Source: an uncultured virus (IMG/VR IMGVR_UViG_3300031565_000019)
Taxonomy: Duplodnaviria; Heunggongvirae; Uroviricota; Caudoviricetes
Length of the DNA: 20,000 nt
Virus record (IMG/VR): IMGVR_UViG_3300031565_000019
Strand: one strand, 5' to 3'
Part shown: positions 333 through 18,227 of the stretch, in pieces
Numbering within the stretch: position 1 is the stretch's first letter
Layout: each line of letters opens with the position of its first letter
The notes under the pieces: model-generated
Seen by the model: the letters and a program-made list of their open reading frames with translations, nothing else
Told to the model about the DNA's origin: nothing
Databases searched by the model: none
Translations under genes and position numbers: made by a program

Positions 333-3300
333 TGGCAACCTATTACATAGCAACTCCCGCAAATGGGGGTGATGATGCTCACTCAGGTACGATTGGCGAA
401 CCGTGGGCAACATGGCAAAAGGGTTTTGAATCTCTTGTCGCAGGAGATACTTTATATATCGGAGGTGGTGAATATTTAACAATCGGTTCACTTAAATCAG
501 GTGAGTTCGTAGGTGTCTATGAAGGTACACACAGCGGAGCTCCAGGCAATTTTATTAATGTCTTTGCTGCTCCTGGTGAAGTACCGATACTGAATTGTAT
601 TGGTATTGTTGAACCGTCTATCAATCATAACGGAATTCTTTTAGAGAATATTAATTACTGGCATATTAAAGGGCTGAGAATCAGAAATGTCAAAGAGGCA
701 ACTGGGAAACTTGCCATAGGGATTAATTTATATAAAGTCTGTAATTCAACATTTGAGAACTTACAAATATATGATAATGGAAGCGGGTTTGTTGCTTCGG
801 GTTTCTGTGATGGAAACCTTGTAAAAAATTGTGACTCGTATGATAATCAAGATTTCACAGACGGGGGAAATTTTGCGGATGGTTTTACATTTGGTCTTTA
901 TGGTGCCGGTGCTGCTTGTCATAATGTTTTTGATGGCTGTAGGGCATGGCATAATTCGGATGATGGTTTTGATTGTTATAGTTCTGATGGTTCTTATCGG
1001 GGTGGTTATATAACATATAAGAATTGCTGGTCATTCAATAATGGCTATACAGGAGGTAATGGAGCAGGATTTAAGGCTGGTCAGTCTTATTCTCCTAAAG
1101 AAATAGGGATTCAAAGAACATATCAGAACTGTCTGTCATTTAATAACAGCGGATATGGATTTGATGAATCTCAGGATATTGCAGCTTATATGGATATGAA
1201 CCTATTCAATAACGTTGCATATAATAATGGTAATGATGGGTTTGCATTTGGCTATACGGCTGGTGGAGGTGTGATAACACTTAGGAATAATATTGCATAC
1301 CTGGATAATGTTGGATTAAGAGTTGATTGTGTGCATGATCATAATTCATGGGATAGTGCTGTCACCGTTACCGATGATGACTTCTTGTCTGTTGATACAG
1401 CAGGAACCGACGGAGCACGACAACCTGACGGCAGCTTACCTGATCTTAATTTCTTGAAATTGGCAGATGGAAGTGATTTAATAAATGCAGGTGTAGATGT
1501 CGGATTGCCCTTTGAAGGTATAGCACCCGATTTAGGCGCTTTTGAATATTCATCCAAGGGAAGTCCCCCGGTAGTTCCTATAACATGTTCAGAGTCTGAT
1601 GTTGATTTTATAGAGACAGCAGGCAGTTTCTATGAAATATCACCCGGTGTTTGGGGAAATGGAACAGGTTATGGAAGTTCGGATAGTTATCTTGATGTTT
1701 CAAATGACGGATATTATGCAGCAATTTATGCAGCCAAAACGGCTAATTATAATTCTGTAATTGGCCTGGATCATCTTAATACACTTATGGATTATTCCAG
1801 TTTTGATTATGCTTTGTATGTAAACTCTGATGATTTATACAGGTGTATAGTTAATGGTTCGTATATTGATCTTGCAATAGCAGCAGTTCCCGGTGAAAGA
1901 TATGCTTTATTCAGGAATGGTGATGTTATTACTGCAAAATATTATGGGGGTGGGGAATGGCATACGCTTTACGTTTTTCCGGCAACAACTAATGATCCGC
2001 TTTATATTAAGGGATCTTTAGCAATGGCTGACAAGACGCTTGTTAATCCAGTTTGTTGTACTACTATAACCAGTCCTCCTGTATCGCCTCCAGTTAGTCC
2101 ACCAGTATCACCCCCGGTAAGTCCACCTGTTTCACCTCCCGTGAGTCCTCCGATAAGTCCTCCCGTGGAACCACCAGTTAGTCCTCCAGTTTACAGAACG
2201 CCTGTAAAAATTGGAGATATTAAGGTATTAATATCTCGATGTGCTGAAGGAATATATTTACGCTGGTATTTTAATGGCTGGCATTATTTTAACTTCCAGA
2301 ATGGTTATGATATAACTATGCAAACCGAAAGCATGGGAATCCAGGTAACTAATTTCTTTTCGGTTATTTCAAAGATAGAACGTGACACGAGAATAAAATC
2401 TGAATATGCATATCAGGTAACATTGCATGGGATCACTCCCGAAAACGTTCCGGGTTTTACGGGATTGTTGCTGGCGGAGCAGGTCGAACAATACGAAGAT
2501 GAGCAATGGAGAATTGTTGAAATTACCAGAGGCGATCATCTGATAAAAGAGGAAGGGACGAATGGGTATATCCTTGATTTTGAAATTACCAGAAAGGAAC
2601 TACCTGATTCGTCTTCGGTTTATCAAAAGAATTTAAGGCTTTATATCGGGGACACTCTTTGTGATATGGATGATGACGAAGTTATACCTGTAAACAAGCA
2701 AGTAAATAATATTGCGGAAATGCAGGATAGGCAGTCTGACTTCACGGCTCAGTTCAAAATACGAAAGACACGGGCGATGCGGGCTCTTTTCGAGTTGTCC
2801 GGAGAGGTCGGAGCGAATACTCTCTTCCCTTATCGGCAGCACGAATGCCGGGTTGTTCAGGATAATATAGAAATGATTACCAATGGCATATTAATACTTG
2901 AGAGAGTTGATGATCAGTATTATTATGTCTCAATCTCTTCCGGGAATATGAATTTTTTCAAGACTATTGAAACATTAAAATTATCTGATCTAACATTGGC
3001 TGGGATGGTACATAATTGGAATGCAACTTTTATGGCATCCACGCACGCTTGCACGAGTCCTAATTGTGATATTGTATATCCGTTATGCGAGCCTTCAGAT
3101 GATGGCAGTATTGCACCCCTTACAGATGATGGGGACAAGGTAGAGATGTACGGAGGTTGGATATGGCCTTTTTGCCGGGTGAAAGCTATATGGGAAGAAA
3201 TATTTGAGAACGCAGGATATACTATTACGGGTGGTGATATTCTTGACAGTGATATTTTTGAGAAACTGTTTATGCCTATTAGCACACGGAAAAATAACAA

Positions 3301-4540
3301 TACGGATGCTTGGCTTTATTCGATGTTTTGGGGAGGCGCACATGGAGCCACACTTAATGACGTTTTAGGTGCGACTGATTTTCCGGGGACAACACTGATA
3401 CTTGGCAATGAGCTTTTTAGACTCGGTTGGTATGAAACACCTCTTACAGCTACATATACTATCCATGTAGGGATTATTACTTTAGCAGGAGTAGCAACAC
3501 TTTCGCTTTGGAATCACGCAGCATACGTTGGGGATTTTCGAATAGTTGATTGGGGCATAGGGATAACGAATTACGAAATAGAATATGTCGGAGTGCCACT
3601 CGACCATTTAAACATACGCACGACAGCAGCCTATTATTACTATTTTTCCGTTAATATAACAAAAATAGAGGATGCATTGATAGCATACGGATCAGATGTT
3701 GATCCACGTTATCATCTTCCGCAGATGACACAGATAGATTTTGTTAAGATGATCTGTAATTTATTCGGTTTGGTTCCTGAAGTGATAGCACGTGACAGAA
3801 AAATAAGATTCTGGAATTATCAGGAACTTTATGACAATATGATCATTGCACGGGATTGGAGTAATTATTTATCTGAACGTGATGATGAGGTAGAGTTCAA
3901 GTTCGGAGATTACGGACGCAATAATTATCTGAAATACAAAGAATCACAGGATGTTATAAAAGACAATGGGAAAGGGAATATGCCTATTGAAGATGAAACG
4001 TTACCGGAATCAAAGGATATTGTGCAACTCAATGTTTCAACTTGTGATGAGGTAACTATTCTGGAAGATGATTTCAGCGTTGACGTTTCTCGAATAGCAT
4101 TTAATAAGTGGTACGAAGATAAAACTGACAAGGCTAATTCACATTATGATTCCAATGAGAGCATTGATCCACGTATCGTGTATGTTGATGTTATTCCAAT
4201 ATTTTCACCGCCAGACCCTAAGAGTTTATGGATAAGGCCTACCGCTGCTCCTCTCGCAGGGATATTCGCTGCCCCTTCACTCGAAGTTGTCAATCCAAAG
4301 AAAGCATCATCACTCGAAGTGTCGTTCTCGAACCTTATAGTTTACTATGCAAATATTTCAAGGATGCTCACAAAAACCAACCTTCGTAGGTCTAAATTCA
4401 ATCTTCCGGTTTACGAGGTTGCCGGATTAAAACATAATATACCAGTATATTTGCGACAATACAAGGCTTATTTTTATGTTAACAAGATCAGTAATTATGT
4501 TGCAGGGCAATTATGTACTGATGAACTTATAAAATTATAA
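332..4540 (+). CDS. Large tail-associated protein: N-terminal PL9/pectate-lyase-like right-handed beta-helix, SPPV linker, C-terminal distal-tail/baseplate-hub-like region
   Basis: Motifs GTIGEPWAT, AGDTLYIGGGEY, GGNFADGF, GCRAWHNSDDGFD, GNGAGFKAG, LINAGVDVGLPFEGIAPDLGAFEY in the first ~405 aa. The C-terminal part (LRWYFNGWHYFNF, QSDFTAQFKI, LPQMTQIDFVKMICNLFGL, VYLRQYKAYFYVNKISNY) resembles Bacteroidota siphophage tail proteins. It sits next to the tape measure gene. Confidence 0.75.
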   Translation: MATYYIATPANGGDDAHSGTIGEPWATWQKGFESLVAGDTLYIGGGEYLTIGSLKSGEFVGVYEGTHSGAPGNFINVFAAPGEVPILNCIGIVEPSINHNGILLENINYWHIKGLRIRNVKEATGKLAIGINLYKVCNSTFENLQIYDNGSGFVASGFCDGNLVKNCDSYDNQDFTDGGNFADGFTFGLYGAGAACHNVFDGCRAWHNSDDGFDCYSSDGSYRGGYITYKNCWSFNNGYTGGNGAGFKAGQSYSPKEIGIQRTYQNCLSFNNSGYGFDESQDIAAYMDMNLFNNVAYNNGNDGFAFGYTAGGGVITLRNNIAYLDNVGLRVDCVHDHNSWDSAVTVTDDDFLSVDTAGTDGARQPDGSLPDLNFLKLADGSDLINAGVDVGLPFEGIAPDLGAFEYSSKGSPPVVPITCSESDVDFIETAGSFYEISPGVWGNGTGYGSSDSYLDVSNDGYYAAIYAAKTANYNSVIGLDHLNTLMDYSSFDYALYVNSDDLYRCIVNGSYIDLAIAAVPGERYALFRNGDVITAKYYGGGEWHTLYVFPATTNDPLYIKGSLAMADKTLVNPVCCTTITSPPVSPPVSPPVSPPVSPPVSPPVSPPISPPVEPPVSPPVYRTPVKIGDIKVLISRCAEGIYLRWYFNGWHYFNFQNGYDITMQTESMGIQVTNFFSVISKIERDTRIKSEYAYQVTLHGITPENVPGFTGLLLAEQVEQYEDEQWRIVEITRGDHLIKEEGTNGYILDFEITRKELPDSSSVYQKNLRLYIGDTLCDMDDDEVIPVNKQVNNIAEMQDRQSDFTAQFKIRKTRAMRALFELSGEVGANTLFPYRQHECRVVQDNIEMITNGILILERVDDQYYYVSISSGNMNFFKTIETLKLSDLTLAGMVHNWNATFMASTHACTSPNCDIVYPLCEPSDDGSIAPLTDDGDKVEMYGGWIWPFCRVKAIWEEIFENAGYTITGGDILDSDIFEKLFMPISTRKNNNTDAWLYSMFWGGAHGATLNDVLGATDFPGTTLILGNELFRLGWYETPLTATYTIHVGIITLAGVATLSLWNHAAYVGDFRIVDWGIGITNYEIEYVGVPLDHLNIRTTAAYYYYFSVNITKIEDALIAYGSDVDPRYHLPQMTQIDFVKMICNLFGLVPEVIARDRKIRFWNYQELYDNMIIARDWSNYLSERDDEVEFKFGDYGRNNYLKYKESQDVIKDNGKGNMPIEDETLPESKDIVQLNVSTCDEVTILEDDFSVDVSRIAFNKWYEDKTDKANSHYDSNESIDPRIVYVDVIPIFSPPDPKSLWIRPTAAPLAGIFAAPSLEVVNPKKASSLEVSFSNLIVYYANISRMLTKTNLRRSKFNLPVYEVAGLKHNIPVYLRQYKAYFYVNKISNYVAGQLCTDELIKL
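2072..2191 (+). repeat. Ten tandem 12-nt coding units encoding (S/E)PP(V/I) proline-rich linker
   Basis: SPPV x6, SPPI, SPPV, EPPV, SPPV, with codons synonymously scrambled (agt/tcg/tca, cct/cca/ccc/ccg). Confidence 0.95.
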
Positions 4541-4542
4541 TC

Positions 4543-6576
4543 ATGGCTACAGAAGAAAAAAAATACTTAGTAAATATTGAGAGCAATCTTGACAAGTATA
4601 TCAAAGAGGCGGAACTGGCAAAAAAGCGAGTTGATGAACTGAAAATTGCCAATATGTTAATGACCAAAGACACGCCACGTGATGAGGTTGAAAGGAATAA
4701 TGCTGCATTGCGTGACGCACAGAAGGATTACAGGAATGCAACAAAAAGTGTTGATCTGGCAACTCAGGCTAATAAAGCACAATCCGGCAGTTATGAACAA
4801 CTTTATAAACAATGGCAGTTAGCTCAGACACAGCTTAAGTTAATGGGGAGTGCTTATACTGTTGATGCAAAAGGGATAAGAATATTATCAGATAAATATA
4901 TAGAAAACAAAAAAGCTGTTGAGGATGCAAAAAGAGCTCTTGATGCTTTCGGGAAAGGTATTGCAGACAATAGGTTGAATGTGGGTAATTATGGTGAAGC
5001 GGTAAGTCAGGCATTCTCAGATGTAGGAAAAAGCATGATGGCAATGCTGGGGCCAGCAGCATTAGTGACGGCTGCTGTTGCTCTGGGCAAGAAAATATTT
5101 GATGGTTTAAAAGAGGCTATCATGTCAACGACATTTGCTATAAACATAATGAATATTGCAGGAGAAGTAACTAAACAAATATTCTATGATATTGCAATAA
5201 ATGGAAAATTTAGTGCTGAAAGTATAATGTCAGTCGTACAAGCAACAAGAATATTGAATGAATTAAGAACAGAACAATATAAAGTAGATTATGAGTTAGC
5301 AAAAATAAACAGAGAAAGGGCATCCCTTGAATTAACTGCACAAGATCAAATGGAAACCACATCTGTTAAGCTGGCAGCATTAACTGAAACAAAAAAACTG
5401 GATGCCATAGCTACAAAAATGGAAACGGATCAATTAAAAAAAGAATTAGCTGCTGTTGTTGATCTTATAAAAACACGCCCTGAAGATGAAAAATTACGTG
5501 CAAGAGCTTATGGCTTAATGGCTAAAATAGAAAATGCCTATGCAAGATCCGATCAGGCAATGAAAAGAGTTGAAAGCAGGAGATCAGGATTTCTTAAACA
5601 AGAAATAGCCGATCAGGAAAAAAGAGTTAAAATGACTGAGGCATGGTATGAGGAAATTGAACAAACGAATATAGCGAACGCAAAAAAGAAGGACGAGGAA
5701 ATTAAAAAGGATTTCAAACGCTGGAGTGATTACTGGGATAAGATTGATGCTTTAGAAGTAGAACAAAATAAAAAGAAGGACGCAGGAATCGAAAAAGATT
5801 TCAAACGTTGGAGTGATTATTGGGACAAAAGGGATGCTCTGGAAGCAGAACGAAGTAAAAGGGATATATCGGCAGGATTTGAATTACAAAAAATAATGGC
5901 GCAGGGCAATCTTGATGTATTAAATATTATTCTTGATAATGAATATAAAGCATTAACTCAAAGTGTTGAATATCAAAGATTGACAAATAATGAAAAATTA
6001 CTTGCAGATCAACAATATACTGATGCCAAAAGAGAACTTTCATTAATAAGAATGGATCAGCATTTATGGGAAGCTGATTTGATTGGTGATATAGCTGGTT
6101 CATTATCTAATTTATTCCAGAAGCAAACAGTGGCTGCAAAAGCACTTTCTGTATCACAGGCATTAATAAGTACATATACAGCAGGCGTTAAAGCAATGGC
6201 AGAACTACCATTAGGATCAGGGCCGATTTTACGCTTCCTTACTTTAGCTTCAGTAATTGCTGCTGGTCTGTTACAAGTTAAAAATATACTTGCTGTAAAG
6301 GTTCCGGGGGGCGGAGGAGGGGGCGAATCGGCACCGGCAGCAATATCGGCCTCAATGCCTGCAATGAGAATATACGCTCAACCAGTGGGGGCAACTTTCC
6401 TGAATCAACCACAATTAACACAGCCACAGATCAATGCATTGCCTAATCAAAATCTTTTGACGGCTGCCGATATAGCTGCTGCAATAAGTAAATTACCACC
6501 ACCGATAGTGACGGTCGAGGACATAAATGCAAAGACAGCGAGTGTGAGGAAAATTGAGGTTCGTGGAACGATATGA
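4543..6576 (+). CDS. Tape-measure-like tail protein
   Basis: 677 aa, Ala/Lys/Glu-rich helical. GSYEQL...RLNVGNY motif typical of Bacteroidota phage TMPs, hydrophobic segments, C-terminal PPPIVTVEDIN. Confidence 0.8.
   Translation: MATEEKKYLVNIESNLDKYIKEAELAKKRVDELKIANMLMTKDTPRDEVERNNAALRDAQKDYRNATKSVDLATQANKAQSGSYEQLYKQWQLAQTQLKLMGSAYTVDAKGIRILSDKYIENKKAVEDAKRALDAFGKGIADNRLNVGNYGEAVSQAFSDVGKSMMAMLGPAALVTAAVALGKKIFDGLKEAIMSTTFAINIMNIAGEVTKQIFYDIAINGKFSAESIMSVVQATRILNELRTEQYKVDYELAKINRERASLELTAQDQMETTSVKLAALTETKKLDAIATKMETDQLKKELAAVVDLIKTRPEDEKLRARAYGLMAKIENAYARSDQAMKRVESRRSGFLKQEIADQEKRVKMTEAWYEEIEQTNIANAKKKDEEIKKDFKRWSDYWDKIDALEVEQNKKKDAGIEKDFKRWSDYWDKRDALEAERSKRDISAGFELQKIMAQGNLDVLNIILDNEYKALTQSVEYQRLTNNEKLLADQQYTDAKRELSLIRMDQHLWEADLIGDIAGSLSNLFQKQTVAAKALSVSQALISTYTAGVKAMAELPLGSGPILRFLTLASVIAAGLLQVKNILAVKVPGGGGGGESAPAAISASMPAMRIYAQPVGATFLNQPQLTQPQINALPNQNLLTAADIAAAISKLPPPIVTVEDINAKTASVRKIEVRGTI
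5683..5856 (+). repeat. 87-bp (29-aa) tandem duplication within tape measure gene
   Basis: KKKDEEIKKDFKRWSDYWDKIDALEVEQN / KKKDAGIEKDFKRWSDYWDKRDALEAERS; copies start at 5683 and 5770. Confidence 0.9.
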
Positions 6577-6803
6577 ATCTATTTGTATATATAAGCCATA
6601 ATATTGACTTGATTAAATATCTTGTCCGGATAGGTCTTATTCCTTGCGGCATTTTAAAGCATTGGCAAATTTATAGCAGATACGATTATTATAAGAAGAT
6701 TGGGAATGAAAATTATAAATCTGTGCTATTTACAGCAGAGGACATGGGTGTACAGGAAAATTGGGTTTATTGTATTATCAGAAAAATGGAGACTGAATTA
6801 TGA
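6573..6803 (+). CDS. Small putative helix-turn-helix DNA-binding protein
   Basis: 76 aa; C-terminal TAEDMGVQENWVYCIIRKM fits an AExxGVSxxxVYxII HTH pattern. ATGA overlaps on both sides. Confidence 0.5.
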   Translation: MNLFVYISHNIDLIKYLVRIGLIPCGILKHWQIYSRYDYYKKIGNENYKSVLFTAEDMGVQENWVYCIIRKMETEL

Positions 6804-7564
6804 AAATAACACAGGGTTACTCATCTATTACGATGAATGTAATTGGATTTTTAAAAATGCACAAATTAAGATTATATGATAATATGAATGAGCCACTTGT
6901 TGTATTTGGCTGTTATTCAGATAAGGATGTAGAGACAATTAAAAATCACAAATCAATCGTAGTAGTTCAATGGGAGGGACTTGATTCAAAAATGAAGAGT
7001 AATCCTTCAATTTTTACTGAGAAGAATATAATAAATGTAAGCCCTCATCCCAATATTAAAAAATACCTTGATTCAAAAGGAATACAATGTCATCTAATAA
7101 AATGGGCAATCGATGAAACTTTGCAGCCACAAATTTTAGGGAATAAAGTATATAGTTATGTGAATAAAAAAACTCCGGTATATTATGGTGGAACTTTAAT
7201 TAATAAATTAAATATTCCTTTTGAAATTTTAATTGGCGATTATAGTATAAGTCATACCGATTGGAGAACTGGCGGATGTGATGAATTTTATCCGAAATGT
7301 TTTATTGGATTGGCATTATCAGAATATGCAGGGGGTGGGACAAGTATAGTTGAATTAGGATTAAGAGGGATAAAAGTCATTACAAATATATTGAATTTGC
7401 CTCATACAATTAAATGGAATACAATTAAAGATATTGAAGATGCCATAAATAAAGAAGCCGAAAATATAGGAAAAATCAATACATCACTTGCAGGGAACGT
7501 TTATAATAATGTTCTTTCTGATGAAAAATTAAAATGTTATGATTTAGACCAATTAATAATATGA
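6800..7564 (+). CDS. Putative glycosyltransferase (GT-B-like)
   Basis: C-terminal FYPKCFIGLALSEYAGGGTSIVELGLRGIKVITN resembles the GT-B donor-binding segment; first of four coupled genes. Confidence 0.55.
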   Translation: MKITQGYSSITMNVIGFLKMHKLRLYDNMNEPLVVFGCYSDKDVETIKNHKSIVVVQWEGLDSKMKSNPSIFTEKNIINVSPHPNIKKYLDSKGIQCHLIKWAIDETLQPQILGNKVYSYVNKKTPVYYGGTLINKLNIPFEILIGDYSISHTDWRTGGCDEFYPKCFIGLALSEYAGGGTSIVELGLRGIKVITNILNLPHTIKWNTIKDIEDAINKEAENIGKINTSLAGNVYNNVLSDEKLKCYDLDQLII

Positions 7565-8286
7565 GAATTTTAGTAACTGCATTTGCATACAATGAAATGA
7601 AGTATATCCCGGAAATGGTAAATTACTATCGTAATCAGGGATGCGATCTTTTAATACTTGATAATTATTCCACCGATGGTACATTTGAATGGTTACAGAA
7701 AAATGGAATAAAAACGAGGCAGATAAATACTAATGAATCATTTCATTTAGGGATTTTACAAACAGAATTGCTTAAAGATATAAAAAAAGAATCACCTGAT
7801 TGGGTGGTTTATACCGGGATTGATTTTTATTATATTTTTGATAAGACTATCAGAGAAACAATATTGGATGCTTCAATGCTGGGTCATAATATAATTGAAG
7901 TGAGACATTGCACAGCTTACAATACCGGAGAAGAAAGAGGATTGCCGCTTCAGAATTATTTTTTTCACATAGCAAGAAACCGGAATTTGCAACTGATAGC
8001 AAAATATGATCAGGGATTTAATATTTTCGCAGATGATATTAAATTAAAATTCCCAAATGTTTTTAAGCCTGATGGGTTTTCTATAAATTATGGATGCTGT
8101 AAATCTGCAAAAGAAAGAGAAGAAACATTTGCAAGACGAAAGAAGGCATGGGATAGCGGAATGACAAAGGGTTGGGGAACGCATTATCTTGTCGGGAAAG
8201 AAAAGAATTGGATTTGGGAAAAAGAGGAATTAATTGATATTCGTAAAACAGATGATTGGAAATATATTCAAAAAATTTTATTATGA
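7561..8286 (+). CDS. Glycosyltransferase family 2-like (GT-A)
   Basis: N-terminal ILVTAFAYNEMKYI...LLILDNYSTDGTFEWL, and DWVVYTGIDF at the DxD position. Confidence 0.75.
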   Translation: MRILVTAFAYNEMKYIPEMVNYYRNQGCDLLILDNYSTDGTFEWLQKNGIKTRQINTNESFHLGILQTELLKDIKKESPDWVVYTGIDFYYIFDKTIRETILDASMLGHNIIEVRHCTAYNTGEERGLPLQNYFFHIARNRNLQLIAKYDQGFNIFADDIKLKFPNVFKPDGFSINYGCCKSAKEREETFARRKKAWDSGMTKGWGTHYLVGKEKNWIWEKEELIDIRKTDDWKYIQKILL

Positions 8287-9041
8287 TAATTTTAATCACT
8301 CCTACTGGCGCACGTCCACGACAAATAGAATTATGTGCACAATTTATGAAAAATCAGGATTACAAAGGCGTTGTCCTTTGGATAATTATTGATGATGCCG
8401 TATTAAGAACAACGGATTTTATCAAAGACGATTTCAAAAAAGAATGGATTATTAAAAAAATATATCCTGTTCCTTCATGGAGAATTGGCCAAAACACACA
8501 AGGACGAAATATTGCGGCCGGGATAAATTTTATAAAGGATTATAAAGACATTGAAGCGATATTTATTATTGAAGATGATGACTATTACACTCCTTCCTAT
8601 TTAACAAAAATGGTAAAGAAACTCGAAGGATACGATATTGCCGGGGAAATGTTTACATTTTACTATAACATAATTATAAGAAGATATACTGTCTGTCGGA
8701 ATACATGGTCGAGTTTATTCCAGACAGCTTTCACTCCGGCAATTATTCCTATTTTGGAAAAATTATATGGAATGAAATTTATTGACATGGAACTTTTTAA
8801 ATTAGTAAATAACAAGAATCTTTTTAAAGACGAGTATCTGGCAATAGGAATAAAAGGGCAGCCCGGGAGGGCAGCGGTCGGCCGTGCACATGGTCGGATA
8901 ATGTCGTGGACAGCCGATCCTGAACTGAAAAAATTAAGATCATTAATTGGAGAAGATGTAAATTATTATCTTAAATATTATGGCATGGATTTCCGATCAA
9001 ATATTTTAACTGGAAGAAAATCATTGCTCCACAGAAAATGA
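8283..9041 (+). CDS. Glycosyltransferase family 2-like (GT-A)
   Basis: Start re-assigned to ATG 8283 (ATGA overlap). LITPTGARP, WIIIDD, IFIIEDDDYYTPSYL motifs. Confidence 0.75.
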   Translation: MIILITPTGARPRQIELCAQFMKNQDYKGVVLWIIIDDAVLRTTDFIKDDFKKEWIIKKIYPVPSWRIGQNTQGRNIAAGINFIKDYKDIEAIFIIEDDDYYTPSYLTKMVKKLEGYDIAGEMFTFYYNIIIRRYTVCRNTWSSLFQTAFTPAIIPILEKLYGMKFIDMELFKLVNNKNLFKDEYLAIGIKGQPGRAAVGRAHGRIMSWTADPELKKLRSLIGEDVNYYLKYYGMDFRSNILTGRKSLLHRK

Positions 9042-9550
9042 GAATAGCAGTATTGGGCCTCGGAGAATCGAGAAGTTTGTTTAATTCATCAGAGTATGAA
9101 TTATCAATAGGTGTTAATGATATTTGGAGATATATTCATACGGATTATGTTGTCTGTGTAGATTATCCACGAGCTTTTACACCAGACAGAATAAAGGTGA
9201 TTAATGAATGTAAGCCAAAGATATTTTTCAGTCAGTTCCTGCAATGGGAAACGAGGCCGGATTTTGAGAAGATTCATATAGCGGCCGGATATCCGGATTT
9301 TATTTGCAACCTGGATCAACTGACTTATCAGAAATCTTATTGCAGCCCGTTTATTGCCACGCAGGTAGCATACAAGAGGTTCGGGGCGACTGAAATACAT
9401 TTGTTTGGTGTCGATCTATTAAATCATCCGCATCTTAATATTACCTTATGTGCCAAAATCAAAGTTCATTTTACTAATCTGAAGAAAGCTTTGCAGTTGA
9501 AGGGGTGCAAATTAATTATTTATGGCGAGGGAATTCTAAAAAATATTTAA
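9038..9550 (+). CDS. Sialyltransferase/MAF-like (DUF115-type) Rossmann-fold putative glycosyltransferase
   Basis: IAVLGLGES, SIGVND, DYVVCVD, SPFIATQVAYKRFGATEIHLFGVDL pattern. Confidence 0.6.
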   Translation: MRIAVLGLGESRSLFNSSEYELSIGVNDIWRYIHTDYVVCVDYPRAFTPDRIKVINECKPKIFFSQFLQWETRPDFEKIHIAAGYPDFICNLDQLTYQKSYCSPFIATQVAYKRFGATEIHLFGVDLLNHPHLNITLCAKIKVHFTNLKKALQLKGCKLIIYGEGILKNI

Positions 9551-9557
9551 AGATTTA

Positions 9558-9587
9558 TTTGTTTATATCAAATATTGTGTATCTTTG
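9558..9587 (+). promoter_or_regulatory. Bacteroidota sigma-A type promoter (-33 TTTG / -7 TAnnTTTG) driving the array RNA
   Basis: TTTG at 9558-9561, 18-nt spacer, TATCTTTG at 9580-9587. Predicted start ~9592-9594. Confidence 0.7.
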
Positions 9588-9592
9588 TAATT

Positions 9593-9696
9593 GAGAATGA
9601 CAAAATGCAAAAAATTATTATTTACAATATTGCCCCGCGGCATTAATCCCATTGAAGTCTGGTCATTCTCCTTTGATGGTTTTTTGTTGCGGGGCA
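9593..9696 (+). ncRNA. Structured leader RNA: long hairpin whose loop is complementary to the transcript 5' end
   Basis: 9631-9642 pairs with 9685-9696 (12 bp, 2 G-U). 9649-9657 pairs with 9671-9679 (9 bp, 2 G-U). Loop GTCATTCTC 9662-9670 is the exact reverse complement of GAGAATGAC 9593-9601. Confidence 0.6.
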
Positions 9697-9705
9697 CGTT
9701 CTTTG

Positions 9706-9921
9706 AATCATTACATTTAAGATAACCATTGGCACAAAGTGAATCACAAATGGAAAGACAACCAATGACTAAAAGTGAATCAGGATGTTTAAGATAACCA
9801 GGAAGCGGAAGTGAATCATAATAAACAAGATACCCAATATGCTTAAGTGAATCAGAACGTAAAAGACAACCATTAAAATAAAGTGAATCATATATGTTAA
9901 GATAACCATCGTTGATAAGTG
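9706..9921 (+). repeat. TIGR-like dual-repeat, dual-spacer guide array: 6 x 36 nt, AATCA-[9 nt A]-AGAYAMCCA-[9 nt B]-AGTG
   Basis: Units start at 9706, 9742, 9778, 9814, 9850, 9886. Spacer A/B pairs: TTACATTTA/TTGGCACAA, CAAATGGAA/ATGACTAAA, GGATGTTTA/GGAAGCGGA, TAATAAACA/ATATGCTTA, GAACGTAAA/TTAAAATAA, TATATGTTA/TCGTTGATA. No indels and all spacers unique. Confidence 0.85.
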
Positions 9922-9950
9922 AAGCTTCTGAGAAATCAGGAGCTTTTTTT
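9922..9950 (+). terminator. Intrinsic terminator closing the array transcript
   Basis: AAGCTTCTGA-GAAA-TCAGGAGCTT 10-bp stem (one G-U) with GNRA loop, running into a T7 tract; begins immediately after the last array unit. Confidence 0.85.
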
Positions 9951-10003
9951 ATGCTCAAAAGTTACTATCCATTTATGAATAGTAAAATAATCTCATTGTG
10001 ATT

Positions 10004-10011
10004 TACTTTTG
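10004..10011 (+). promoter_or_regulatory. Possible -7 element (TAnnTTTG) for the head operon
   Basis: TACTTTTG downstream of the terminator and 24 nt before ATG 10035; no canonical -33 TTTG. Confidence 0.45.
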
Positions 10012-10034
10012 TCTCATAATTAAATCAAAAGACT

Positions 10035-10163
10035 ATGAATCCGATGGGTGTTTGTTCAGCTTATACTTATATTGATCAGGTTCTATTTATTATCAATGAC
10101 AATAGTTATCCGGATATAGCTAATGATTTCTGGTATAATTTATTTGGCTGTGGTGGCAATTAA
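10035..10163 (+). CDS. Unannotated 42-aa peptide (MNPMGVCSAYTYIDQVLFIINDNSYPDIANDFWYNLFGCGGN)
   Basis: A-rich leader (TAAATCAAAAGACT-ATG); stop TAA lies 1 nt before the protease ATG at 10165. Confidence 0.5.
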   Translation: MNPMGVCSAYTYIDQVLFIINDNSYPDIANDFWYNLFGCGGN

Positions 10164-10164
10164 T

Positions 10165-11280
10165 ATGGAACCTGCAATCCTTAAAATATACAGTGATATT
10201 GGAGAATCACTTCCTGATACATTCATGGGAGAAGGAGCACAATCTATTTCTGCAAAAGATGTATCACAATTTCTTGATGATAACAAAGAGGCAACTGAGA
10301 TTAATATTCTCATTAACTCCCGGGGTGGAGATGTTCAGGAAGGATGGGCAATACATGATCTGCTCAAAAATTCCGGAAAGAAACTAAAAACTATTGGCGA
10401 AGGCAAAATTTATTCTATTGCCACTATCATATTCCTTGTGGCAGATGAACGTGAGATAATGAAAAATGCCGATGGTCTGATTCACAATCCCTTTATCCCC
10501 CCTTACACGCTTGCTGATAAATATGAATCCGATGATCTTGAAAAGATTGCCGAAGAATTGAAGCAAGAGGAAGAGAAAATACTTGATTTTTATGTGGAAC
10601 GTACAGGTACCCCGGCCGACAAACTTGCAGAATATATGAAAGAGAACACGAAGTTATCAGCAGAGGATATGCTTAGTCTTGGTTTTGCAACTAAAATAAT
10701 TGAGCCTGTTAAGGCGTATGCAATTTTTAAACCGAAAATAAATTCTATTATGGATTCAAAAGATGTAAAAACATTCGGAGAAAAGCTCGACACTATCATT
10801 TCAAAGATAGCAGCCTTCTCCCGGCTTACTACCATTGATCAGACTTTAAAAGACAAGGATGGCAAGGAGTTCAAGCTTGAAAAAGAAACCGGAGCGCCTG
10901 CTGTCGGAGACAAGGCTTCTCCCGATGGGACTTATGTTATGGCAGACGGCAAAACGATAGTCATAACAGACGGTGCAGTATCGGAGATCAAAGAACCTAT
11001 TGCAGCCAAGACGGAACTTGAATTGGCAAATGAGAAGATAGCCGATTTGCAATCTAAACTCGATGCTGCCGAGAAAGAGAAGCCTGATCTTGTTGCTGTT
11101 GAAGCATCATTTAAGGCGAAAGAAGCACAAGCAGTCGCTCTCGCTACTGAACTTCAGGGCATGAAAAATTCATGGATTCCTGAAGGGAGGACTAAATTTA
11201 GTTCTGCCGAAAAAGTCGGATCGATTGACCTTAACAGGGTACGTGAACTGAAAGAAAAATTAACTTCAAAAACTGAATAA
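10165..11280 (+). CDS. ClpP-type prohead protease with C-terminal scaffold-like extension
   Basis: INSRGGDV, IYSIATII (Ser), LIHNP (His), LSAEDMLSLGFATKI. C-terminal DGTYVMADGKTIVITDG plus coiled coil. Start re-assigned from 10123 to 10165. Confidence 0.85.
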   Translation: MEPAILKIYSDIGESLPDTFMGEGAQSISAKDVSQFLDDNKEATEINILINSRGGDVQEGWAIHDLLKNSGKKLKTIGEGKIYSIATIIFLVADEREIMKNADGLIHNPFIPPYTLADKYESDDLEKIAEELKQEEEKILDFYVERTGTPADKLAEYMKENTKLSAEDMLSLGFATKIIEPVKAYAIFKPKINSIMDSKDVKTFGEKLDTIISKIAAFSRLTTIDQTLKDKDGKEFKLEKETGAPAVGDKASPDGTYVMADGKTIVITDGAVSEIKEPIAAKTELELANEKIADLQSKLDAAEKEKPDLVAVEASFKAKEAQAVALATELQGMKNSWIPEGRTKFSSAEKVGSIDLNRVRELKEKLTSKTE

Positions 11281-11281
11281 T

Positions 11282-12367
11282 ATGTCACAGACATCACCAG
11301 TGTGTGGACACACACTCAACTTAGACAATCTTCACTTCACTCCTGATGAACTCAGGTCATTGAATGAACTGGTTGTAACTGCTGTTCTCGAAGCACCGGA
11401 ACTTTCGTCTTTCCATACCCTTGTTACCGGAATAAAGAACGATAGACGAATCGGAATAATCCCGGGAACATTCGGGCTGGTGGGGAAAGCTGCCCAAGCT
11501 TGCGATCCGGTAGCTCAGTGTTACGAGGATGTAGCTATTGAAAAGACATGGGAACCTCGTTATCTGGAAGTCATTATAGATATGTGCGTGGATGAACTGG
11601 CAGATACATTGATGAAGCTCGCAATTAAATGCGGGGTTGATCTTTATGATCTGACCAAAACGGAGATCTTCACATTCATTCTGAACATTCTTTCAAAGGA
11701 CATTTCGAAGATGGTTTTCCGTCATGCATGGTTCGGAGATCAGAATGCTGCACAGCTTCCGGCAGGAATTTTAACTCCGGGGACTGATCCTGCTTTCTTC
11801 AATGTCATTGACGGCTTCTGGGTTCAATTAGCAGCCGTGTATGCAGCTAATCCCTTACAGCTTGCAGCACTACCGGGGAATACGCAGTTAACTTATGCCT
11901 TACAACAGTCAGTAGCAACTCCTGTATTGATGTATGCCGCAGTAAACAATGTAATTGATTCTGCTGTTTCCGAGCTGGCAGCACAACCTGATAGGGTTCT
12001 CCTTGTCACAAGGTCAGTAATGGACAGGTTACGCAGACAACTACAGGCACTTGGAACAGCATTTCAGGACTACAAACTGATGATCAACGGGCTGGAATTT
12101 GCTACATGGGACGGAATTAGAATCGTATCTATTCCTTTATGGGATCAATGGATCAGGGCATACGAAAATAACGGAGCGAGCTGGAATGATCCTCACAGAG
12201 TTGTTTACACAACTGTCTCCAATCTAAATATTGGGATGGCCTGTACTTCACTATTTGATAATATTAATTCGTTTTACGATCCGAGAAGTCGTTACAACAG
12301 GATTGAGGCAGTTGATGCTTTCGATGCCAAAATTATTGACGACAGGCTCTTCATGGTAGGACGTTAA
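11282..12367 (+). CDS. Major capsid protein (probable)
   Basis: 361 aa directly after the protease. KMVFRHAWFGD, FNVIDGFWVQL, TWDGIRIVSIPLWD resemble Bacteroidota phage capsid proteins. Confidence 0.75.
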   Translation: MSQTSPVCGHTLNLDNLHFTPDELRSLNELVVTAVLEAPELSSFHTLVTGIKNDRRIGIIPGTFGLVGKAAQACDPVAQCYEDVAIEKTWEPRYLEVIIDMCVDELADTLMKLAIKCGVDLYDLTKTEIFTFILNILSKDISKMVFRHAWFGDQNAAQLPAGILTPGTDPAFFNVIDGFWVQLAAVYAANPLQLAALPGNTQLTYALQQSVATPVLMYAAVNNVIDSAVSELAAQPDRVLLVTRSVMDRLRRQLQALGTAFQDYKLMINGLEFATWDGIRIVSIPLWDQWIRAYENNGASWNDPHRVVYTTVSNLNIGMACTSLFDNINSFYDPRSRYNRIEAVDAFDAKIIDDRLFMVGR

Positions 12368-15617: not shown

Positions 15618-16576
15618 TGGATCATGGTATTTCAATATCTGTCAAATCACAATCAATCGGTATAAATACAGGAGGATTACAATCAATTGGTGTAAAAGTA
15701 TCAGGAGGATCAAACCTTCCTGCGCCGGTAGCGGAGAATGATTTTATAGTTGCAAATACAGGACTTAATTGGATTAAAAAGACATTAGGTGAAATAAGAA
15801 CAATTCTCGGACTTGGTTCGGCTGCTTATACTGAGAGTACTGATTATGCAGATTCAGTCCATGCTCATGATGAAGACTATGAACCTGCAAATACAAATAT
15901 TCAGGAACATATAGCAGATAATACTCAGGCACATTCAGATTATCTTTTGAATACAGGCGATACAGCAACGGGAGTTTATAATTTTGATACAAATACTTTT
16001 GTTATTGATAGTATAAATCATAGAGTTGGAATTGGGACGACGGAACCTGGGGGGACTTTAGAAATAGGTAGCGGGCAATTACTTATTCCAAAGGGTCTTT
16101 CAACAGCCCCCGCTATTGCATTCTCTGGCGACAAAGATACGGGTATGTGGGCGAGTATGGCAAGCAGGTTGGGTTTCGTAGTTGATGGAACTCAAGTTAT
16201 GACCGCGTCTCCAACATGGTTTCAATTTCAAGTGCAAATGCAAACTACTCCTGGGACAGCGGCCGCTCCTGGATATTCCTTTAGAAATAATGCTGATACA
16301 GGAATGTTAAGTCCAGGCGATACTCATCTTGCTTTTAGTGTTGGTGGTACTGAAAAAGTAAGAATAGAAGAAGGCGGCAACGTCGGCATCGGAACAGCAA
16401 CTCCAAACGCAAATGCAATATTAGATATCACAAGTATTACTAAGGCATTTATGCCACCGAGAATGACTACTACCCAAAGGGATAATATTCCTTCACCAAC
16501 AGAAGGAATGGTTATATATAATCTTACTACTCATGTGCTCAATTTCCACAATGGTACAGCATGGGACGCAGTATAA
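15617..16576 (+). CDS. Fibre-like virion protein
   Basis: LGLGSAAY, RVGIGTTEP, two TAPAIAFSGDKDTG / AAPGYSFRNNADTG repeats, GNVGIGT, PRMTTTQRDNIPSPTEGMVIYN. Confidence 0.7.
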   Translation: MDHGISISVKSQSIGINTGGLQSIGVKVSGGSNLPAPVAENDFIVANTGLNWIKKTLGEIRTILGLGSAAYTESTDYADSVHAHDEDYEPANTNIQEHIADNTQAHSDYLLNTGDTATGVYNFDTNTFVIDSINHRVGIGTTEPGGTLEIGSGQLLIPKGLSTAPAIAFSGDKDTGMWASMASRLGFVVDGTQVMTASPTWFQFQVQMQTTPGTAAAPGYSFRNNADTGMLSPGDTHLAFSVGGTEKVRIEEGGNVGIGTATPNANAILDITSITKAFMPPRMTTTQRDNIPSPTEGMVIYNLTTHVLNFHNGTAWDAV

Positions 16577-17081: not shown

Positions 17082-18227
17082 ATGAAAAAATTATTATTAT
17101 TAATATCTCTTGCTATTAGCATAGGAATAAATGGGCAGAAAATAACAAATTTAACTGAAGCCACCACGGCTCCGACAGGTTCCTTACTTATGGTGAGATC
17201 AGGGACAACAGGAAATCTTATCAAAAGGATTACCGTGGATAATTTATTATTAAATTATATAATCAGTGCTGACACGGCTGCAATGTTAGATAAATATCTG
17301 CGTAAACAGCCTATTGATTCTCTTGGGACTGTTGGGACGGCGGTTGGATTTTATAATAGCGCAGGAGATACAGTTCCTCCTTATATACCTTATGCAAACA
17401 GGGCAGATTTGGTAGCTGTATTAAGAGATCTTGGTGTAACTATGTTTACTGACAAATATCAACTTGTATATAACGCACTTGATATTAAGCCGGATAGCGA
17501 CACCGCACATTATCAGAATGATATGGTATATAGTCTTGACAGTGCAGGATATTGGGACAGGGGAAAATTACTTTATGTTGCTGCACAAAGAAGCACGGCA
17601 GGAGCTAAGATTAACTGGATAACGCCGGGGACTTATAATCTTACTGATCCCGGCAGTACTGTTCCATCATTTATTAAATATCAGGGGTTTGATATGGATG
17701 GTTCGTCTGATTATTTTTCAACAGATTATGTTCCTGTTACTGATTCTTTACTCGCGAGTAGTCCTGCTAATTATATTGGAGTAAATTGTACAACATTGTC
17801 TGCATGGACATTAACAGGATTAAGCGCAGGCGGCAGAACTGTAATTGGTGCATTTTCCGGTACTGGTATTGGAACACACCTCGCTACATTAAACTCAATA
17901 GCTACAAAGATTAATTCAGTATCAAATTCAGTTCTTGGTGCCCAGACAGATGGGAATGGATATACGATGGCAACAAGACGAGGAAAGACAGAACTTGAAG
18001 GATATTTTAATGGTGTTATCAATGGGACAGATAATGAAGTAAGTTATTCTCTGCAAGATGATGCTTTATTTGTTGGAGCTCTTAATGATGATGGAGGGAG
18101 TGTTTTATATTTTTATGACGGTATTATTTCGATAATACTGGTTATGGATGATGTTTCGGATGCCGATGCACTTGGAATTTTTAATATTTTCAATCATTTT
18201 ATGAATCACATGGGACTGGGATTATGA
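17082..18227 (+). CDS. Signal-peptide protein with fibre-type N-terminal motif and C-terminal LamG/concanavalin-like domain
   Basis: MKKLLLLISLAISIGING|Q signal peptide, then QKITNLTEATT...KRITVDNLL. C-terminal GFDMDGSSDY, TLSAW, LEGYFNG, LFVGALN, YDGIISII. Confidence 0.65.
   Translation: MKKLLLLISLAISIGINGQKITNLTEATTAPTGSLLMVRSGTTGNLIKRITVDNLLLNYIISADTAAMLDKYLRKQPIDSLGTVGTAVGFYNSAGDTVPPYIPYANRADLVAVLRDLGVTMFTDKYQLVYNALDIKPDSDTAHYQNDMVYSLDSAGYWDRGKLLYVAAQRSTAGAKINWITPGTYNLTDPGSTVPSFIKYQGFDMDGSSDYFSTDYVPVTDSLLASSPANYIGVNCTTLSAWTLTGLSAGGRTVIGAFSGTGIGTHLATLNSIATKINSVSNSVLGAQTDGNGYTMATRRGKTELEGYFNGVINGTDNEVSYSLQDDALFVGALNDDGGSVLYFYDGIISIILVMDDVSDADALGIFNIFNHFMNHMGLGL

Follow-up and report, generated by a model that had tools for sequence, protein, structure and literature searches.

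The locus described here raises the question of what use an array of dual-spacer guide RNAs could be to a phage whose genome encodes no protein to employ them. The array lies in the structural region of an uncultured Caudoviricetes virus from soil (IMG/VR IMGVR_UViG_3300031565_000019), of which a stretch of 20,000 nucleotides, hereafter the window, was analysed; the full phage record spans 44,007 bp, bears a 127-bp direct terminal repeat, and has an estimated completeness of 100%. TIGR-Tas systems entered the literature in 2025 (PMC12045711). On balance, we lean towards the view that the locus is a TasH-type array that forms a self-contained unit, was acquired from a TasH locus, resides in a tas-less genome, and acts in trans.

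Positions 9706-9921 on the plus strand consist of six tandem 36-nt units of the form AATCA + 9 nt + AGAYAMCCA + 9 nt + AGTG, without indels. The motif AGTGAATCA-N9-AGAYAMCCA was found five times in the window at a spacing of 36 nt and never in 200 dinucleotide-preserving shuffles, which bears out the periodicity and the two alternating, indel-free repeats reported in a first-pass annotation of the letters. Tandem Repeats Finder returned a period of 36 with 5.7 copies (9704-9909), and a genome-wide search with an independent pattern recovered these six units and two others, the reversed control pattern giving zero. All 12 spacers are mutually distinct, as had also been claimed. The ninth base of each presumed 9-nt spacer is A in 12/12 cases, which makes each repeat 10 nt long (edge AAGTGAATCA, loop AAGAYAMCCA) and leaves 8 nt for each spacer. 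The two repeat types of the annotation stand, and its 8-9-nt spacers are refined to 8 nt. Listed as spacer A, loop, and spacer B, the tigRNA units are unit 1 (9706-9741; TTACATTT, AAGATAACCA, TTGGCACA), unit 2 (9742-9777; CAAATGGA, AAGACAACCA, ATGACTAA), unit 3 (9778-9813; GGATGTTT, AAGATAACCA, GGAAGCGG), unit 4 (9814-9849; TAATAAAC, AAGATACCCA, ATATGCTT), unit 5 (9850-9885; GAACGTAA, AAGACAACCA, TTAAAATA), and unit 6 (9886-9921; TATATGTT, AAGATAACCA, TCGTTGAT), all on the plus strand. The complete edge repeats are identical in 5/5 cases, and AAGA...CCA is kept in 6/6 loop repeats.

This layout of 10-nt edge, 8-nt spacer, 10-nt loop, and 8-nt spacer agrees with the published dual-repeat TIGR array, in which repeats of 8-12 nt alternate with spacers of about 8-9 nt in a tandem 36-nt unit (PMC12045711). 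In TIGR arrays, moreover, the first edge repeat is described as lacking its 5' part and the last as lacking its 3' part, with a terminator after it (Faure et al. 2025, PMC12045711), and the same was found here: the first edge repeat is the 5'-truncated TGAATCA (9704-9710, plus strand), and the last is the 3'-truncated AAGTGAA (9917-9923, plus strand), which runs into the terminator hairpin in the manner of the array end in Salicola phage CGphi29. The annotated extent, 9706-9921, is thus right for the six units and slightly short for the array, whose truncated edges lie partly outside it. Edge and loop both start with AAG and end with CA (edge TCA, loop CCA), the positions of box D and box C; the TasR consensus is given as UG...CCA, and the box motifs are said to be able to diverge while covarying between edge and loop (PMC12045711). 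A CRISPR array was rejected, in agreement with the annotation, because it needs one repeat type of ~25-36 nt with spacers of similar length, and the window has two 10-nt repeat types with 8-nt spacers.

We are confident that this is a real TIGR array of the TasH type. Its repeats are those found beside HNH-Nop (TasH) proteins: letter-identical copies of AAGTGAATCA and AAGATAACCA occur in many tasH-adjoining arrays (e.g., L062, L063, L069, and L070), and the proteins of ~315 aa that adjoin arrays with these repeats (the neighbour in L010) match solved TasH chains (21kl, 9w03, and others) with E = 2.8e-86. Among contigs matching the repeat pattern, a Tas profile match adjoins the array in 23 of the 28 distinct metagenome contigs, 8 of the 11 distinct viral contigs, and both of the two genome contigs. 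The array was also compared directly with SpTIGR-TasH of CGphi29 (NC_020844; PMC12045711; PMC13421893). Both have 36-nt units with 10-nt repeats and 8-nt spacers, and in both the two repeats read AAG...CA; the CGphi29 loop AAGACAACCA is identical to that of window units 2 and 5. Each array finishes with an edge repeat that is cut short on its 3' side and fused with a terminator, and both are sited among phage head genes. They differ in the edge repeat, which is AAGCGAGCCA in CGphi29 (3/10 bases different), and in that TasH is encoded immediately upstream of the CGphi29 array, whereas the window phage has no tas gene anywhere. The likeness to TIGR repeats that the annotation had drawn holds up in direct comparison with CGphi29 and with dozens of environmental tasH-adjoining arrays whose repeats are letter-identical, and so does its placing of a TIGR array in a phage structural region. 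Its description of the array as a divergent variant has to be dropped: for the TasH clade these repeats are canonical, and those of CGphi29 likewise start with AAG.

The array is part of an inserted cassette of 424 bp (9538-9961, plus strand), delimited by comparison with relatives, and is, as predicted from its elements, a self-contained transcription unit made up of a promoter-like motif, a structured leader, the array, and an intrinsic terminator. The bipartite promoter-like motif (9558-9587, plus strand) comprises TTTG (9558-9561), 18 nt, and TATCTTTG (9580-9587), and we take it to be the Bacteroidota promoter consensus. Where shuffles lead one to expect 0.68 copies of the pattern TTTG-N17-21-TAnnTTTG, the coding strand of the genome has five; two of these stand directly upstream of the two arrays of this phage, and the homologous leaders of two other loci, L059 and L057, have kept the motif. 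The non-coding leader (9588-9703, plus strand) belongs to a region sharing 89% identity across 142 nt with the leader before array 1 in the TasH locus of L058/L059, the homology to L059 beginning at window position 9539, and it can also be aligned with the leader of L057; a short ATG-started frame within it showed no conservation in L057 when the alignment was read by eye. Folding and a 3-sequence alignment delimit a conserved leader hairpin (9631-9696, plus strand) with an MFE of -32.6 kcal/mol (z = -5.6; 0/200 shuffles fold equally well) and 35 predicted pairs, 7 of them with compensatory double changes. The predicted terminator (9921-9953, plus strand; hairpin 9921-9946) has an 11-bp stem, a GAAA loop, and a T run, with one such element found against 0.3 expected, and is homologous to the L057 terminator, with compensatory changes in the stem. 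On the upstream side lies a gene of 170 aa (9038-9550, plus strand) that belongs to no family, since neither Pfam nor PHROG gave a match; relatives without the array conserve this gene, which is therefore not a partner of the array. The downstream gene (10123-11280, plus strand) encodes a head maturation protease with the Clp protease fold (PF00574, E = 1.7e-24; phrog_94, E = 1.3e-38).

Comparison with related phages shows that the 424-bp cassette is an insertion. None of the 33 protease-linked related phage loci, which are all the loci examined, contains an array. The closest relatives, L020 and L021 (82-88% nucleotide identity), are colinear with window positions 9045-9537 and from 9962 on, and they are contiguous across the gap corresponding to 9538-9961. 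Soil runs containing this phage number six; minor contigs in two of four soil runs jump from 9489 to 9964, so that cassette-less variants co-occur with the cassette. A megablast search with the whole window as query gave no match among 50,697 phage records. The L058/L059 TIGR-TasH locus, on a metagenome contig, has a homologous promoter-like motif, leader, and hairpin and the same edge and loop repeats. The order in L059 is leader, 7 units, tasH (313 aa), 9 units, and terminator, unlike the window, which has 6 units, a different terminator, and no tasH; the two share no spacers, and the window phage has no nucleotide similarity to the L059 phage other than in the leader region. The 424-bp unit was probably acquired horizontally from a TIGR-TasH locus of another phage. 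The cassette is missing from all retrieved relatives and thus shows no long-term conservation in the lineage, and its intactness may just reflect recent acquisition.

Searches for a partner gene covered the complete 44-kb genome. Pfam Nop and Transposase_20 had no match, a 7-sequence Tas profile had none, TasH was found neither by tblastn nor by hmmsearch of six-frame ORFs (best E = 0.35), and hhalign of 42 ORFs for Tas reached a probability of 0.6% at best. These searches show a complete phage genome with no tas gene. A TIGR-Tas system has a Nop-domain tas gene adjacent to its array, and such a gene was lacking here; given the absence of Tas from the complete genome and the conservation of the flanking genes without the array, we classified the locus as a TIGR array and not as a complete TIGR-Tas system. 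A second array, of two units and likewise tas-less, lies outside the window at genome positions 16436-16536, with its own promoter-like motif and terminator. It holds a chimeric unit that joins the spacer A of unit 3 to the spacer B of unit 4, each with 1 mismatch, which indicates that A/B spacer pairs get shuffled and makes recombination visible at the loop repeats. The first-pass annotation had described the array and passed over the absent tas gene, the recent insertion of the cassette, and this second mini-array.

Further arrays without a tas gene were found elsewhere. L057, an unrelated contig, carries a homologous tas-less cassette consisting of a leader, 7 units, and a homologous terminator; the terminal CCA is gone from 3/7 of its loop repeats, which looks like decay. 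This contig stops 300 nt past the terminator, and a tas gene farther downstream is possible there. G002, another complete phage genome (74.7 kb), contains an array and no Tas. The same soil runs contain other arrays with the same repeats and different spacers. On the host side, the Tas profile matched 2 of 401 sampled Bacteroidota genomes, namely the centre genome itself and one weak partial match, and the effector appears to be phage-borne, not host-borne. We infer that the host belongs to Bacteroidota from the promoter-like motif, from weak, below-threshold Pfam DUF matches, and from one Flavobacteriales MAG contig with a related array.

The spacers were then compared with related arrays and with possible targets. 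Related arrays contain 282 distinct spacer pairs in 333 units, and arrays sharing the repeats differ in their spacers. None of the 12 spacers of the window recurred among these 333 units in the same orientation; one reverse-complement 8-mer match looked chance-like. The predicted target consists of spacer A, 0-2 nt, and the reverse complement of spacer B. In the phage's own genome, neither paired-spacer geometry gave an exact or 1-mismatch self-target, and the best match had 2 mismatches (9441-9456), the level of mispaired controls. No exact paired-spacer match was present in 476 kb of fetched loci, and 92, then 282, distinct spacer pairs of related arrays had 0 exact matches in all fetched loci and the own genome. 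A search for the 8 tigRNAs of this phage, covering array-bearing phage loci of 266 kb in all (532,842 positions counting the two strands), gave no exact match, 1 with one mismatch, and 14 with two, against 0, 0.57, and 12.6 for mispaired controls scaled to equal number in the same loci; there was no excess of near matches. A scan of IMG/VR for the predicted unit-3 target returned 88 scattered stretches, of which 80 were fetched (20, 38, and 22 with gaps of 0, 1, and 2 nt, respectively), and they fell into small clusters of near-identical contigs, the largest homologous cluster numbering 6. We judged this scatter to be at chance level; a 16-mer gives too many chance matches in a collection that large. 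Paired-spacer targets above background, for which the annotation had suggested a search, were thus found neither in the own genome, nor in the fetched or array-bearing loci, nor in the unit-3 scan. Genuine TIGR-Tas targets are described as hard to identify (PMC12045711). Compared with the diversity of soil, the databases searched are small, which makes the absence of targets weak evidence.

For a phage that carries such an array, we think it somewhat probable that tas-less arrays are functional in trans. The annotation had taken the six units for dual guides that might serve competition between phages or control of host genes. With a promoter-like motif and a terminator, the array would be transcribed, presumably early and by the host polymerase, and we propose that the transcript is processed into 36-nt RNAs; SpTasH is reported to process pre-tigRNA unaided (PMC13421893). 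Since the phage has no effector of its own, its tigRNAs could only work on TasH that another phage, co-infecting or resident, makes within that cell, and given the identity of the repeats, such a foreign TasH would be expected to process these RNAs and load them. The likeliest effect would be that they compete with a rival's guides for its nuclease and so act as an RNA 'anti-TIGR', which taken singly we regard as possible and no firmer than that; a close second, in itself rather unlikely, would be redirection of the rival nuclease to targets of this phage's choice. More broadly, we tentatively suggest that tas-less TIGR arrays may be a mobile, guide-only phage weapon that floods a rival's TasH and blunts or retargets it, an extension that we hold with less assurance than activity in trans as such. 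The second tas-less array, the L057 cassette, G002, and the 7 compensatory hairpin pairs look like signs of maintenance.

Other explanations have to be weighed against activity in trans, and the least probable by far is that the repeats operate at the DNA level, as iterons or operators for a phage protein, or form part of a minus-strand gene for a tandem-repeat protein. Direct repeats spaced at helical multiples can be protein-binding sites, and an open frame does cross the array. Against both versions, the repeats are letter-identical to those of tasH-adjoining arrays in many contigs, the layout is that of the CGphi29 array, whose RNA products are experimentally characterised, and truncated edges followed by a terminator are the architecture of a transcription unit. 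Iterons or operators would be conserved at the locus among relatives, and the region is absent in 33/33 of them, which argues against a core origin or operator; of the two possibilities that the annotation had set against each other, a protein-binding site and an array, this absence and the identical tasH-linked repeats speak for the array. We judge the minus-strand frame (131 codons, 9563-9958) to be an artefact of the 36-nt (12-codon) periodicity: it has no Pfam or PHROG match and continues through the terminator and leader, similar frames occur across other arrays, and in arrays with 37-nt units (e.g., L006, L013, and L015) a frame of this kind is broken. Rfam returned nothing relevant, its one sRNA match (minus strand, 9917-10018) being sub-threshold at 24.7 bits against a gathering score of 48.

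The serious rival to activity in trans is a neutral remnant: a TIGR-TasH locus was gained and tasH lost, for instance by recombination between flanking arrays, leaving a unit that is transcribed, functionless, and undecayed. This is possible, if on the doubtful side. Loci with arrays on both sides of tasH do exist (L010, L059, and L075), and a repeat-to-repeat deletion there would leave precisely a leader, an array, and a terminator; the chimeric unit of the second array displays recombination at loop repeats, the cassette is missing from 33/33 relatives and is therefore young, the L057 homologue has degenerate loop repeats, and the target searches turned up no target. It sits less well with the presence in one tas-less genome of two distinct arrays, both having a promoter-like motif and a terminator of their own, with the intact repeats (5/5 complete edges identical, 6/6 loops keeping AAGA...CCA), and with the recurrence of tas-less arrays among unrelated phages, one of which is a second complete genome. 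The window and L057 cassettes also share leader and terminator despite marked leader divergence (many non-conserved columns), and a common tas-less ancestor, if there was one, would mean persistence. Within the in-trans reading, the same data bear on whether the tigRNAs would serve as offensive guides, loading onto the TasH of a prophage or co-infecting phage and cutting either this rival or the host. All units are complete and well formed, their 12 spacers are unique, their repeats are identical to those of TasH-linked arrays, TasH is PAM-independent and processes arrays itself, and viral mini-CRISPR arrays are described as a precedent in interviral conflict (PMC6858448). We nevertheless consider offensive guides improbable: the 266 kb of array-bearing loci hold no paired-spacer target above mispaired controls, the unit-3 scan of IMG/VR gave only its 88 scattered matches with a largest homologous cluster of 6 near-identical contigs, and A/B pairs are shuffled between the two arrays. 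Such shuffling would destroy a specific 16-bp target, which counts against retargeted guides and is neutral for competition.

Phage RNAs that mimic the repeats of an RNA-guided system they do not encode are described in accounts of Racrs (PMC10651486) and of viral CRISPR-like regulatory RNAs (bioRxiv 10.1101/2024.10.29.618823), and these interfere by occupying the proteins of the system. As reported there, they target host CRISPR-Cas, whereas the array in the window mimics TIGR-Tas, with an effector that is apparently phage-borne. Racrs are, moreover, solitary, spacer-less repeats, unlike the units of the window, which are complete dual-spacer guides and for which interference is hypothetical. 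Virus-borne mini-CRISPR arrays (PMC6858448) resemble the array as short, effector-less guide arrays with an effector thought to be supplied in trans in virus-virus conflict; they belong to a different RNA-guided system and are reported to match related viruses, whereas no such match was found here.

Literature searches gave nothing relevant on effector-less TIGR arrays, and two TIGR preprints examined for them contain no mention; arrays or repeats with a bearing on this may be listed in the Science paper (figures S4 and S5, table S1) and in the TIGRSafari resource. The catalogue of 6,685 arrays is described as built only around known tas loci (bioRxiv 10.64898/2026.09.09.750476), and a design of this kind would miss tas-less arrays. 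In this phage, TasH-type arrays are seen to travel without an effector as well, as predicted self-contained transcription units; a single complete genome has two of them, homologues occur in other phages, and presence/absence variants are found within the same soil samples. The leader hairpin, which loci with and without tasH have in common, is a candidate element of TIGR expression that has not been described before. The arrays raise the testable question of whether tas-less arrays parasitise or jam the TasH of another element. If they are only remnants, the finding documents tasH loss and half-unit recombination at loop repeats. Should the anti-TIGR reading hold, such arrays would provide the first natural example of an RNA 'anti-TIGR' and a first indication of what TIGR-Tas systems contend for in nature.

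The window array (9706-9921) consists of six 36-nt units, arranged head-to-tail and free of indels, each in the order AATCA, 9 nt, AGAYAMCCA, 9 nt, AGTG. Tandem Repeats Finder reported a period of 36 across 9704-9909, and the composite motif AGTGAATCA-N9-AGAYAMCCA occurred five times in the window versus never in dinucleotide-preserving shuffles (n=200). Because all 12 nominal spacers carried A as their ninth base, each unit really comprises an edge repeat of 10 nt (AAGTGAATCA), spacer A of 8 nt, a loop repeat of 10 nt (AAGAYAMCCA) and spacer B of 8 nt. All 12 spacers are mutually distinct. The first edge repeat (TGAATCA, 9704-9710) is truncated at its 5' side. The last edge repeat, truncated at its 3' side (AAGTGAA, 9917-9923), runs into a terminator, in which a hairpin of 11 bp, closed by a GAAA loop, precedes a T run, the sole terminator-like site in 9300-10200 (0.3 expected). 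Faure et al. 2025 (PMC12045711) describe TIGR arrays as alternations of two 8-12-nt repeats with short spacers, in which the first edge is 5'-truncated and the last edge is 3'-truncated and followed by a rho-independent terminator, and from which processing yields 36-nt tigRNAs with ends in the middle of the edge repeat. The anatomy of the window array agrees exactly with this description.

Judged by its sequence, the window array is a TIGR array of the type linked to TasH, an HNH-Nop effector nuclease. Scanning IMG/VR with the window's own repeat pattern yielded 13 stretches on 11 distinct viral contigs. In eight of the 11, a frame of ~284-321 aa lies open directly beside the array (one of the eight is cut by the contig end), and these frames match a Tas profile built from six of the array-neighbour proteins. 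One such protein (318 aa, locus L010) matched solved TasH chains (21kl, 9vzx, 9w03, 9w04 and others) over residues 12-317 (E = 2.8e-86), its sole Pfam match being IS110-type Transposase_20. As a query among named phages it retrieved Salicola phage CGphi29 (49% identity), whose tasH is located between the major head protein gene and the head-tail adaptor gene. Direct inspection of the CGphi29 sequence revealed an array downstream of tasH, with edge AAGCGAGCCA, loop AAGACAACCA and 8-nt spacers, whose final edge repeat is truncated and fused with a terminator. The loop repeat of this experimentally characterised system (SpTIGR) is letter-identical to the window loop in two window units. The window edge departs from that of CGphi29 by three substitutions, each from G/C to A/T; the GC content of the phage genome is 36%. 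Further, a metagenome scan returned 29 stretches on 28 distinct contigs, 23 of them with a Tas profile match directly adjoining the array, and many of the tasH-adjoining arrays have consensus repeats (AAGTGAATCA with AAGATAACCA or AAGACAACCA) letter-identical to those of the window. In the genome collections two contigs matched, one from a Flavobacteriales MAG and one from a Nitrospiraceae MAG, with Tas adjoining the array in both. The array type is already known and, given these identical repeats, its earlier classification as a divergent TIGR variant gives way to a TasH-type assignment.

The window spans bases 23986-43985 of a virus record that is 44,007 bp long, has terminal direct repeats (measured at 127 bp) and is estimated to be 100% complete. 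By every search run, this phage genome is without a Tas-like gene. Neither Pfam Nop nor Pfam Transposase_20 gave a candidate in the 44,007 bp, tblastn with six Tas proteins returned only noise (E of at least 1.2), and the best E from hmmsearch for Tas, run on every open stretch of 40 aa or more in the six frames, was 0.35. A 7-sequence Tas profile, which did detect Tas in three other genomes (G004, G005 and G006), had no match in the phage genome. The top hhalign probability against the Tas alignment was 0.6% for 42 plus-strand phage ORFs of 100-700 aa, and Pfam and PHROG scans of 53 phage-genome ORFs indicated ordinary phage functions and no Tas candidate. Of the two genes flanking the array, one encodes a protein of 170 aa and the other the head maturation protease; as both are kept in array-less relatives, neither is a dedicated array partner.

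Several other genes of the phage were recorded as well. Four consecutive small genes (6800-9550), two of them with glycosyltransferase family 2 matches, separate the putative tape-measure gene from the head protease and make up an unusual glycosylation block within the structural module. The junction after this block is variable among relatives, and one of them (L029) has other small genes inserted there. The 677-aa coiled-coil protein (4543-6576), probably the tape measure, contains an 87-nt tandem duplication at 5683-5860 (two copies, 82% matches). Pel9A-like right-handed beta-helix domains were found in two large proteins (332-4540, 1402 aa; 18224-19999, at least 592 aa), which are likely tail fibre or depolymerase proteins. 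The whole phage genome (L001) also has genes, at 1581-2363 and 10555-11379, for a protein with a caspase domain (Peptidase_C14, E = 3.8e-20) and for one that is radical-SAM-like (phrog_9298, E = 1.5e-23).

The window array is a recent, self-contained insertion. Among 33 loci of relatives retrieved via the head protease (57-87% amino-acid identity), none contained the repeat motif or a period-36 tandem repeat of any kind. The closest relatives (L020 and L021) align with the window over 9045-9537 and again from 9962, and are contiguous across the gap. Independently of this boundary, homology to an unrelated TasH locus (L059) starts at window position 9539. Together these limits define an inserted unit of 424 bp (9538-9961), the cassette. 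It contains a bipartite promoter-like motif (TTTG at 9558-9561, 18 nt, TATCTTTG at 9580-9587), which we take to match the Bacteroidota promoter consensus; a sigma-70 promoter scan gave nothing above background. The phage genome has five copies of the pattern TTTG-N17-21-TAnnTTTG on its coding strand and one on the opposite strand (shuffle expectation 0.68). Two of the five coding-strand copies precede the window array and a second array of the same genome, and two more precede early-region genes. The stretch was present in six soil metagenome runs, and the dominant contig was identical across the array in all four runs whose contigs were compared. Low-depth variants skip from 9489 to 9964, or from 9489 to 10052 with 138 other letters between, so that cassette-less relatives occur in the same soil samples. 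In runs X1 and X5, low-depth contigs over window 9300-10300 carried the same repeats with other spacers, some half-sharing window units, suggesting that this soil community also contains variant or foreign arrays.

Over 142 nt, the window leader (~9570-9710) shares 89% identity with its counterpart in a metagenome-contig locus (L058/L059), in which the TIGR locus adjoins a head-morphogenesis gene and, in L059, runs as promoter-like motif, leader, 7 units, tasH (313 aa), 9 units and terminator. Beyond the leader, the window phage and L059 have no nucleotide similarity and no spacer in common; a leader identity of 89% with a TasH-bearing phage against this background implies that such phages have been in genetic contact. 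In the third homologue (L057), the same promoter-like motif and leader come with 7 units, and the terminator is homologous to that of the window, its stem showing compensatory changes; no Tas match was found in 2.9 kb upstream, and, as the contig ends 300 nt downstream, a tas could lie further on. The leader contains a 66-nt hairpin (9631-9696; MFE -32.6 kcal/mol, z = -5.6), which recurs at ~2560-2625 of L059 (minus strand) and ~2999-3066 of L057, so that one locus with tasH and two cassettes without tas have it. When the three sequences were aligned, 7 of the 35 pairs predicted had changed on both sides yet still paired; with three sequences only, these compensatory changes are suggestive, not proof, of a conserved hairpin.

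BLAST of L059 against the phage genome also revealed the second array outside the window, confirmed by pattern search. It lies at 16436-16536 of L001 (16396-16536 with its promoter-like motif), upstream of the terminase genes, and was absent from all 24 terminase-linked relatives. A few bases after the motif (TTTG-N19-TATCTTTG) come two units, then a truncated edge and a terminator, the spacer pairs being TTTGATTT/AAATTGAC and GGATGTTC/ATATGCCT. Its unit 2 is a chimera in which spacer A corresponds to that of window unit 3 and spacer B to that of window unit 4, with one mismatch each, the expected product of a deletion between two loop repeats. The half-shared units in low-depth soil contigs hint at the same shuffling pattern.

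Arrays with no detected tas also occurred elsewhere, and, as far as sequence searches go, the evidence is firm for two complete genomes and suggestive for several further cases. L006 is part of a 74,681-bp record (G002; terminal repeats, estimated completeness 100%), in which the Tas profile had no match; its array (G002 C1 ~71025-71205) comprises ~5 TasH-type units by eye and 3 by strict pattern, one of 37 nt. At a syntenic site, L010 has a clamp-loader-like gene, 3 units, tasH, 6 units and the next gene, and L004 (same contig as L067) has only 3 units between the two genes; L004 is a 7.8-kb fragment (an estimated 10% of its genome), and tas could lie elsewhere in that genome. No Tas was found in L014, an estimated 39% of a genome, or in 1.1 kb upstream in L080, where a promoter-like motif directly precedes 8 units and a terminator. 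Contigs L056 and L081 are cut inside or beside their arrays, and the start of L056 reads as TasH C-terminal codons.

Faure et al. (PMC12045711) describe 3' overhangs and state that gaps of 1-2 bp are tolerated, so the predicted target is spacer A, 0-2 nt and the reverse complement of spacer B, the first register considered in the first-pass annotation. No paired-spacer search yielded evidence of a target. The phage's own genome had no site with zero or one mismatch; its best site (two mismatches, 14/16; 9441-9456), a match to the predicted target of tigRNA unit 1, occurred at mispaired-control frequency. This near-target, ~250 nt upstream of the array and inside the 170-aa gene, is probably a chance match. 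Exact sites for 282 spacer pairs numbered 0 in 476 kb of fetched loci (0.13 expected), the 8 phage tigRNAs had 0/1/14 sites at 0/1/2 mismatches in array-bearing loci versus 0/0.57/12.6 in scaled mispaired controls, and an IMG/VR scan for the unit-3 target gave 88 scattered stretches, consistent with chance. As the site is 16 bp and soil viruses are sparsely sampled, the absence of targets says little either way.

The literature searched has no description of a mobile TIGR cassette that lacks an effector, sits in a complete phage genome and has a conserved leader hairpin; the search behind the published TIGR catalogue was confined to the surroundings of tas loci. A neutral remnant, that is, a functionless leftover array, is a less likely but serious alternative; the youth of the cassette in the window-phage lineage and the decaying loop repeats of the L057 homologue speak for it. 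The favoured inference is that the cassette is transcribed and acts in trans. Among 401 Bacteroidota genomes drawn evenly across the phylum, the Tas profile matched two, one being the centre genome itself and the other matching weakly and over part of the profile (positions 70-237, E = 1.4e-10), which indicates that TasH is essentially phage-borne among the genomes searched. A co-infecting or resident phage would be the most plausible source of an effector for the window tigRNAs. PMC13421893 reports that SpTasH processes pre-tigRNA autonomously via its Nop domain, so a repeat-matched TasH should accept a foreign array. Functionally, the nearest analogies are with RNA anti-CRISPRs, viral CRISPR-like RNAs and virus-borne mini-CRISPR arrays. 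The cassette would give rise to tigRNAs acting on another phage's TasH, and competition for the rival nuclease is slightly likelier than its retargeting, as it would not depend on particular target sites and is compatible with the half-unit shuffling seen.
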